The translations under genes and the position numbers were made by a program. Positions 8,680-9,116 of a stretch of 64,000 nt of DNA are shown piece after piece (the stretch's first letter is position 1; every line of letters begins with the position of its first letter). This stretch comes from Eledone cirrhosa (taxonomy: Eukaryota). Location of the stretch: the NCBI GenBank assembly GCA_964016885.1, contig OZ024747.1, positions 52,762,001 to 52,826,000 of the forward strand, read 5' to 3'. Below the pieces are notes generated by a model. The model was not told the DNA's origin. It ran no database searches and saw only the letters and a list, made by a program, of their open reading frames with translations.

Positions 8680-9116
8680 ATACGATATATTAACAAATGG
8701 AAACTATATTTATAAAACCATATTTATTTCATTATACATATTTCAAGGACACCAAATTAAATTATGGTGTGCTTTCATCAGATAAAATATAATATAGATC
8801 AGTTTTATAAATAAATATTGACATACCCTTAAAGAATGCAACCATTACTGTTGGAATCTCCCGGATAGTTGCATTCTTTAAGGGTATGTCAATATTTATT
8901 TATAAAACTGATCTATATTATATTTTATCTGATGAAAACACACCATAATTTAACTTGGTGTCCTTGAAATATGTATAATGAAATAAATATGGTTTTATAA
9001 ATATAGTTTCCATTTGTTAATATATCGTATTTTTACTCCAAATATTTGTTGAGTGCTTTATATCAGTTATAAAAATATTTGCTTGTTGTATCCCAACAAT
9101 TTAAATAGAACTCTTA
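8680..9116 (+). mobile_element. Family G fold-back element: 163-bp inverted arms (8680-9030) plus ~86-nt tail, within (TA)n
   Basis: Arms are reverse complements with ~2 mismatches and a 25-nt loop; each arm contains a hammerhead motif. Confidence 0.85.
8921..8985 (+). ncRNA. Type I hammerhead ribozyme motif (mirror copy on the minus strand in the left arm)
   Basis: Stem I TATTTTAT/ATGAAATA; core CTGATGA 8929-8935; stem II includes ACACCA/TGGTGT; GAAA 8966-8969; stem III AT-ATGT-AT; NUH = AUA. Confidence 0.75.

Follow-up and report, generated by a model that had tools for sequence, protein, structure and literature searches.

A hairpin with two opposed hammerhead motifs in Eledone cirrhosa as a probable head-to-head insertion of Penelope-like element ends

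Introduction

Is a hairpin that carries a hammerhead ribozyme motif in each of its arms, on opposite strands, a designed ribozyme/antisense device, or is it the footprint of an inserted mobile element? The question is raised by a locus in a stretch of 64,000 nt from Eledone cirrhosa (OZ024747.1:52,762,001-52,826,000; C7:52.76 Mb of the 3.0-Gb assembly), which we refer to as the window and which is AT-rich, with a G+C content of 28%. We find the hairpin to be a structure left by the insertion of a Penelope-like element (PLE), not a designed ribozyme/antisense device, a point that the first-pass annotation of this DNA had missed. Most probably it consists of two inverted, 5′-truncated copies of the PLE 3′ terminus standing head to head in (TA)n, likely the product of one insertion in which reverse transcriptase (RT) was primed from both cut strands; in each copy there is a type I hammerhead motif for which self-cleavage is predicted, probably restricted to the dimer. 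A striking 171-bp hairpin with two opposed ribozyme motifs would then be ordinary output of a class of retroelements that is known, though poorly understood.

The hairpin and its two motifs

The locus is composed of the following features (positions within the window):

8660-8678, no strand: (AT)n run, read directly; left flank of the hairpin and target microsatellite
8675-8845, minus strand: left arm; inverted unit of the short version, without tail, 5′-truncated at the hairpin centre
8725-8789, minus strand: hammerhead motif of the left arm; stem I 8789→8782 with 8732→8725, CUGAUGA 8781→8775, GAAA 8744→8741, predicted cut after 8733
8846-8864, no strand: spacer; junction of both 5′ ends, different in extent and orientation among copies
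8865-9035, plus strand: right arm; unit in plus orientation that runs on into the tail
8921-8985, plus strand: hammerhead motif of the right arm; CUGAUGA 8929-8935, stem II 8936-8965, GAAA 8966-8969, predicted cut after A8977
9036-9116, plus strand: tail of 81 nt, one-sided, UUUUUACUCC...UUGUUGAGUGCUU...AAUAGAACUCUUAC; long version of the unit 3′ end
9117-9500, no strand: (TA)n microsatellite flanking the tail end of the hairpin

The inverted repeat is real, and the motif is present in both arms: a repeat search places the arms at 8675-8845 and 8865-9035, 97% complementary and separated by 19 nt, with a length of 171 nt each instead of the 163 first given. As had also been proposed, a transcript of either strand would contain one sense and one antisense copy, each arm having a complete hammerhead-type motif. 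The RNA of 8675-9116 folds into one hairpin (-249.6 kcal/mol, z = -37 vs shuffles), so that in a read-through RNA the 171-bp duplex would sequester the sense and the antisense motif alike. A near-palindromic word, GGRAGCUYCC, is found at or near the 5′ region of units, namely in the spacer 8846-8864 and at the hairpin centres of loci L002-L030, and also in L031 and L033. It is common to a family of canonical hammerheads described below (CGGAGCUUCCG), whose head-to-head junction in L031 lies exactly on the word.

Both arms contain the full set of catalytic core positions (C3 U4 G5 A6 N7 G8 A9, G12 A13 A14, the pair A15.1-U16.1, and a non-G at 17). Core positions are numbered as is customary for hammerheads. 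This numbering is consistent with the available passages of PMC4209133. In the right arm, stem I pairs 8921-8928 with 8978-8985 (8 bp including one G.U), stem II reads AAAC-ACACCA / UGGUGU-CCUU, and helix III, which with its loop spans 8969-8976 (AUAUGUAU), has just one A-U and one U-A pair. The predicted cut after A8977 falls on the same AUA, 8975-8977, that the first-pass annotation had named. Stem II of the left arm (8774→8745) reads AAGC-ACACCA...UGGUGU-CCUU. Position 10.3 of the right arm is A (8938) vs G in the family; G is found at 8938 in nearly all aligned contigs from four sequencing runs of unspecified kind, contigs which show that the family is present. The closing pair 10.1-11.1 is A-U at this locus. 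The distance from the hammerhead to the 3′ terminus is ~50 nt at the short end and ~140 nt at the tail end.

Covariation of stem II and conservation of the core

A second unit in the window had been cited for compensatory changes:

28523-28992, minus strand: second unit, solitary, of another subfamily (stem II GUACCAA/UUGGUAC), interrupted by a short interspersed element (SINE) at 28581-28704

Its motif (minus strand, 28759→28705) reads UUUUAU-CUGAUGA-UAGC-GUACCAA..UUGGUAC-CCUU-GAAAU. Direct reading bears out that two stem II pairs are changed with compensation (ACACCA/UGGUGU to GUACCA/UGGUAC), with no change in the core or in the 5′ strand of stem I. The SINE at 28581-28704 had been overlooked; it begins 2 nt past the predicted cut and pushes away the 3′ strand of stem I. 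This SINE is tRNA-like and is found at the equivalent site in three independent units (window 28581-28704, L061 ~1400-1500, and L081 ~760-900), each time 2-5 nt past the predicted cut and within the (UA)4 of helix III. The recurrent site probably reflects a preference of the SINE for TA repeats, not cleavage.

The further claim, that the covariation supports selection on RNA structure, survives a much larger sample, in which the compensated changes of the one second copy prove general. From 367 kb of loci, 156 motif copies were collected, and stem II was paired from both anchored ends without gaps. Canonical pairing at 10.1-10.3 and 10.5-10.10 is seen in 72-97% of these copies, vs means of 30-46% in shifted registers; 10.4/11.4 is C.C in 142/156 copies, and a G10.1.U11.1 wobble is seen in 41/156. 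Contrasting the subfamilies AAG-C-ACACCA/UGGUGU-C-CUU and GGA-C-GUACUG/CAGUAC-C-UCU gives six double changes among nine pairs. A MAFFT alignment was then restricted to one row per distinct stem II string (106 of 109 rows, three with mutated GAAA being left out). Among these 106 sequences, seven of the nine pairs show double compensated changes, 87.6% of the cells are paired vs 29-48% with the partner slid, and the covariation score is 0.508 vs at most 0.172 when slid and 0.307 when shuffled, with 0/500 shuffles reaching the observed value.

Most of the 106-row sample was drawn with a pattern that fixes the core; hence a second, motif-independent sample was taken via a flanking 21-mer. Its first 100 genomic matches were all recovered, and 87 of them are in register. 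CUGA-N-GA is intact in 83/87, with N7 being U in 55, A in 12, G in 11 and C in 5 copies, and GAAA is present in 85-86/87; the C.C mismatch of helix II recurs in 82/85. N7 is the sole variable position of the core and is the position that hammerheads leave free, which fits the hammerhead reading. Variation in the proximal 8 bp of stem I occurs through G.U only (97.6% of cells paired), and single subfamilies have a stem I of 11-26 bp. In the family, helix III comprises 2 bp inside a palindromic AUAURUAU. For two copies, RNAcofold predicts a double hammerhead with an intermolecular helix III of 8 bp as the minimum (-30.4 kcal/mol vs 2 x -12.7). Judged by this sequence evidence, the hammerhead reading is well supported, and self-cleavage is predicted.

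Size of the family and arrangement of its units

The family has at least 46,000 units. For a 21-mer that lies 13 nt past the predicted cut, the genome contains 46,382 exact matches (23,190 + 23,192; control 0), and a 361-nt hairpin query returned 594 first-look candidates, with 90-97% identity at all 40 places scored. The motif itself is far above chance, since an anchored pattern excluding the S1 subfamily finds 27,035 exact genomic matches and its reversed control none. S1, the subfamily of the window hairpin, was counted with a specific 25-mer (4,623 genomic matches).

Close copies of the hairpin (28, i.e. 30 loci minus two duplicates) were aligned. The element is asymmetric: an 81-nt tail follows one arm, and (TA)n then stands at both ends, adjoining the tailless end directly in most copies. 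The tail occurs at one end only in 27/28 copies, L007 being tailed at both, and the hairpin centre varies in extent and orientation. In a sample of 19 (-,+) pairs that was not chosen by motif, exactly one tail is present in 18/19, none in 1 and both in 0, vs ~47% one-tail pairs expected if the ends were independent. Among 100 unit 3′ ends, 37 are long and 63 short, and 58 of the short ones run directly into (TA)n of at least 5 repeats. The 3′ ends are precise and the 5′ ends variable, with 5′-truncated fragments that consist of the tail only reaching down to 70 nt.

Solitary units account for 65/114 motifs. Where motifs are adjacent, head to head (-,+) is the commonest arrangement (15/26 pairs), and 5/26 are tandem. 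The first 100 places of the 21-mer anchor include 8 short and 11 long (-,+) pairs; those of the S1 25-mer include 12 close (-,+) pairs with start-to-start distances of 75-209 nt, the window hairpin having 172. Given this variable spacing, the junctions look independently formed. Arm divergence is 2.5% within a copy vs 3.3-3.5% between copies, and there is no site at which the arms differ in a majority of copies. These values do not separate copying from a hairpin master from formation at each insertion; the variable spacing, as far as sequence can tell, favours formation anew.

Could the host have adopted the hairpin as a source of small RNAs or as a substrate for editing, and could the ribozymes regulate how it is processed? 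A read-through transcript would indeed form a perfect-like duplex of 171 bp, and the inner hairpin weakly matches the microRNA precursor model mir-4536. That match, however, is far under threshold (37.4 bits vs a gathering score of 76) and reflects the hairpin shape only, and the locus belongs to a set of near-identical copies, thousands in number, which undergo neutral decay, as the arm divergence and a core mutated in 7/56 S1 arms illustrate. We give such a domestication hardly any probability.

Long copies and their open reading frame

Arms in (-,+) orientation also occur 1.3-3.9 kb apart, and the longer copies with an ORF between them measure 3-4 kb. Eleven such stretches share internal sequence of 80-94% identity and carry open reading frames (ORFs) of up to 583 aa, of which three are given here:

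L146:1669-3417, minus strand: PLE ORF
L145:2262-3959, minus strand: PLE ORF
L201:754-2211, plus strand: PLE ORF

Read as reverse complement, L146 begins with (TA)n, after which comes a short, inverted arm (~500 nt) whose hammerhead is on the minus strand. The ORF on the plus strand follows, and then a 3′ untranslated region, a 500-nt arm with the hammerhead on the plus strand, a 90-nt tail, and (AT)n. L201 has the same layout; S1-type hammerheads flank its ORF, which runs in the direction of one arm and is 78% identical to P0001 and 90% to P0002. The left arm of the window hairpin is homologous to the 3′-terminal region of both long copies.

The ORF of L146 is N-terminally shorter than its ~700-aa homologues; 784 homologues of the PLE ORF are found at E <= 0.001. 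The AlphaFold model of the ORF (pLDDT 74.7) matches reverse transcriptases, the first being TERT (3du5_A, E = 3.8e-8). Aligned by hhalign to the GIY-YIG ORFs of the genome that pass the Pfam cut-off, the ORF profile reaches a probability of 96.9% (E = 1.7e-10) over 334 columns, spanning the RT core and the GIY-YIG block. By eye, the RT-like motifs F.QLD...YSSI, MGS, YRDD and FLD can be read in the ORF, along with a CxC...CP...C motif and a KIY...YVGST...R...H block. The homologues carry the precomputed domains PF26215 and PF28514; among 30 of them, one matches RVT_1 and one GIY-YIG in Pfam, both weakly. Some results weigh against this assignment. The 583-aa ORF has no Pfam match even at E <= 10, nor do four of its homologues, and a PDB sequence-profile search with it gave 0 matches; its assignment to GIY-YIG depends on the profile-profile alignment and on the motifs recognized by eye.

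By sequence and modelled structure, we assign the family to the Penelope-like elements. The combination of telomerase-like RT and GIY-YIG is found in the long copies and not at the window locus, which is composed of two terminal fragments of ~190 and ~270 nt with no ORF and no coding capacity. In the genome as a whole, GIY-YIG (PF01541) yields 10,596 first-look candidates, so that PLEs of several families must be very abundant. No autonomous partner of the units was found beside GIY-YIG matches at 12 loci, where only a 70-nt tail fragment (L137) was seen. ORFs with RT, PHD and APE beside four copies were likewise considered; they belong to an unrelated long interspersed element (LINE) with (GAT)n tails and are not the element's own. 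This abundant LINE (APE endonuclease, RT, PHD finger, (GAT)n tails) adjoins the (TA)n of units at L027, L053, L056, L061 and L046, and its 5′-truncated copies begin right at the microsatellite.

An inverted repeat around an ORF also calls to mind a foldback DNA transposon or one of the miniature inverted-repeat type (MITE). A transposase would then bind the arms as long terminal inverted repeats, CUGAUGA and GAAA would be incidental, and stem II would be a binding site at the DNA level or a palindrome kept by template switching. The near-perfect repeat of 171 bp agrees with this, TA-rich flanks could conceal a TA target-site duplication, and the long copies do show inverted arms around an ORF that Pfam does not recognize. 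Adjacent compensated changes in a DNA palindrome can, moreover, come from one template-switch event. The termini are asymmetric, however, with a tail at one end in nearly all pairs and copies, more than half of the motifs are solitary, and precise 3′ ends together with variable 5′ ends and fragments down to 70 nt are a hallmark of target-primed reverse transcription. Only one arm has the orientation of the ORF, which combines an RT fold closest to TERT with homology to ORFs that contain RT plus GIY-YIG. At the level of the motif, the G10.1.U11.1 wobble pairs on the ribozyme-sense strand only, and N7 alone varies within the core. A foldback transposon is thus a very unlikely source of the hairpin.

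Does the motif cleave?

Several results speak against a working hammerhead. No Rfam hammerhead model reaches its gathering threshold in the window, and at E <= 10 no Rfam hammerhead family matches 8600-9120, 8908-8996 or the G10.1-C11.1 variant L088:685-780 (query stretches of 521, 89 and 96 nt). RNAalifold on the 106-sequence alignment returns a weak, unrelated helix (-1.78 kcal/mol) and no hammerhead; the local fold is no stabler than shuffles (z = -1.07), and the hammerhead structure of the monomer has only -4.6 kcal/mol. Within the 106 sequences, the pair 10.1-11.1 is A-U in 57, G.U in 30, G-C in 8 and other in 11, so that G10.1-C11.1 is the exception, and helix II carries the C.C mismatch mentioned above. 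Double compensated changes are absent from stem I, whose distal 10 positions are only 42% paired in fixed register. As the core is mutated in 7/56 S1 arms, copies such as the window hairpin are not themselves under selection; core variability in S1 arms (0.011 vs 0.023 elsewhere) differs marginally and supports no claim of selection on copies. A look-up of RNA runs for 8675-9116 gave no match. Finally, the 5′ ends of units do not pile up at the predicted cut (0-1/100), in a test of low power. Automatic sorting of the 100 units sampled via the flanking 21-mer counted 85 as full, 2 as GAAA-only and 13 as breaks. On visual inspection of the last 15, ~9 are small indels and 6 are true truncations, scattered over positions 1.4-1.14, helix III and stem II, at most one of which could be at the cut.

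These data may suggest that the motif is a structured RNA element of the retroelement that resembles a hammerhead and does not cleave, for example a protein-binding site or a start signal for RT. The missing Rfam score, the non-canonical pair 10.1-11.1, the conserved C.C and the lack of a footprint at the cut all point this way. In a lizard PLE, hammerhead mutants left insertion in vitro unaffected, no reads ended at the cut, and cleavage needed protein (PMC11167929); PLE hammerheads are also described, in the available part of the source, as cleaving poorly in vitro (PMC4209133). A mere protein-binding hairpin, however, does not predict that all 11 core positions required for catalysis are kept and only the free N7 varies, nor the A15.1-U16.1 pair followed by a non-G at 17. 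The palindromic helix III and the double hammerhead as the predicted lowest-energy dimer also speak against this reading, as does a sister family of this genome whose Hammerhead_1 motifs are fully canonical and whose units are of like kind and likewise stand head to head. We therefore regard a non-cleaving element as unlikely.

In the sister family, 19/74 scored candidates exceed the RF00163 cut-off, the best with 37.8 bits. Its canonical Hammerhead_1 loci L031-L040 (e.g. G000:C3:10277077-10277121) are units of ~165 nt ending in (TA)n, and (-,+) pairs occur there as well, e.g. C8:12554784(-)/12555028(+). The window holds another, different hammerhead-like motif of the minimal PLE type at 43943-43975 (plus strand), CUGAUGA-A-GGAC-UAGC-GUCC-GAAAC-GUU, with a helix I of 4 bp (UCUU/AAGA); a 28-mer of it has 3,203 exact genomic matches (control 0). 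In some units (L042, L053), what seems to be a degenerate relative of the stretch is found upstream of the main hammerhead. A head-to-head pair of CCUGAUGAUUUCAAAUGAAUGAAACAGUUCUAGUC units ending in (TA)n is found at 29780-29860, with more copies near 29032 (plus strand), 37615 (minus strand) and 40070 (minus strand). A 35-mer of the unit has 316 exact genomic matches, many in close (-,+) pairs; as a hammerhead the unit is doubtful, for no convincing helix II could be drawn.

A possible mechanism

Returning to the insertion of PLE ends, we hypothesize a single two-sided event in (TA)n, in which one cDNA would start at each of two RNA sites and both would be joined 5′ to 5′. The short and the long 3′ ends of the units would correspond to two alternative start sites of reverse transcription. 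The motif may be retained because active (master) elements need it in their RNA, with selection acting there. By analogy with other PLEs, its role in active elements may be the processing of multimeric or read-through transcripts, helped by a protein or by a second ribozyme copy. The ribozymes of the window hairpin would be passengers of the insertion mechanism; located on opposite strands, they cannot supply a dimer in cis.

Tentatively, this idea can be carried further, to a proposal we hold to be possible and somewhat short of probable. Head-to-head insertions, which number in the thousands, may be in-vivo footprints of two-sided PLE integration, where both strands of (TA)n are cut and primed, reverse transcription starts at the distal RNA site on one strand and at the proximal site on the other, and the cDNAs meet 5′ to 5′; the hammerhead, with its long helix II, invariant C.C and non-G-C pair 10.1-11.1, would form a variant class dependent on protein or on dimers and overlooked by current covariance models. 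A distal start on one strand and a proximal start on the other would explain why a single tail is the rule in (-,+) pairs. If true, the genome holds a natural record of a mechanism so far seen only in vitro and for one lizard element.

The one-tail-per-pair rule and the variable 5′-5′ junctions provide quantitative genomic support for priming on both strands and for two start sites, as reported only from one in-vitro system. Likewise, 5′ ends that do not accumulate at the predicted cut agree with the in-vitro report of uncleaved RNA as template. A family of hammerhead variants with tens of thousands of copies that escapes Rfam also implies that genome annotations under-count such ribozymes.

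Comparison with known systems

Hammerheads of PLEs were reportedly the subject of work by Lunse, Weinberg and Breaker in 2017. The family described here adds a very large new member to the PLE hammerheads, a known class, and its insertions have the architecture known from PLEs. A literature search found no description of this particular family; supplements of hammerhead surveys, which lay outside that search, may list it. It departs from described motifs in the pair 10.1-11.1, the invariant C.C mismatch, the lengths of helices I and II, and the length of the tail. Comparisons with PMC4209133, PMC6765202, PMC8557442, PMC7229834 and 10.64898/2026.07.22.740005 refer to the available parts of these sources.

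According to published descriptions, PLE hammerheads belong to type I; they combine a long helix II with a helix III that is small and palindromic, and they act as dimers and are weak in vitro (PMC4209133, PMC6765202). The present motif shares the type I topology, the long helix II and the very short palindromic helix III (Cervera & de la Pena 2014, PMC4209133), and a helix III of this kind implies action as a dimer. As in that description, it lies in the terminal repeat region of the PLE and occurs in many subfamilies per genome that are full of compensatory changes. In contrast to the closing pair G10.1-C11.1, which is highly conserved in hammerheads (PMC4209133), the pair 10.1-11.1 here is mostly A-U or G.U. 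No unpaired nucleotide stands between A9 and 10.1, helix II has ~10 bp with a conserved C.C at 10.4/11.4, and helix I has at least 8 bp vs the 4-5 bp described; the predicted cleavage triplet is AUA (PMC4209133 for the contrasting state). With Rfam Hammerhead_1 (RF00163) the motif has the conserved core boxes and the order of helices in common, whereas no Rfam hammerhead model matches it even at E <= 10.

Strong 5′ truncation marks the insertions of PLEs, together with an inverted, 5′-truncated copy that adjoins the 5′ end, a one-end tail, targets of (TA)n, and a pseudo-long terminal repeat (pLTR) that contains a hammerhead (Craig et al. 2021, PMC8557442). For a lizard PLE in vitro, both DNA strands are cut and extended, and the targets are AT-rich (Frangieh et al. 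2024, PMC11167929); its reverse transcription begins at two internal RNA sites, the interval between them being the tail (PMC11167929). The Eledone family resembles these systems in 5′ truncation, inverted copies, a one-end tail and (TA)n or AT-rich targets, and in having the hammerhead upstream of the start sites of reverse transcription (PMC8557442, PMC11167929). Unlike in described PLEs, its tail measures ~80-115 nt vs 30-40 bp as published (PMC8557442, PMC11167929), and the window locus is an ORF-less pair of terminal fragments.

Metazoan non-LTR retrozymes (Cervera & de la Pena 2020, PMC7229834; Li et al. 2026, 10.64898/2026.07.22.740005), i.e. without long terminal repeats (LTR), are similar in that their units are short (a few hundred nt), AT-rich and non-coding and contain a type I hammerhead; they have been interpreted as non-autonomous derivatives of the terminal repeats of PLEs. 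Retrozymes are, however, direct tandem repeats that give rise to unit-length linear and circular RNAs, whereas the units described here are mostly solitary or head to head, with tandem arrangement in the minority of pairs given above. The window locus is an inverted pair and was accordingly not counted among the retrozymes; its head-to-head arrangement does not permit the release of a unit by two sense cleavages.

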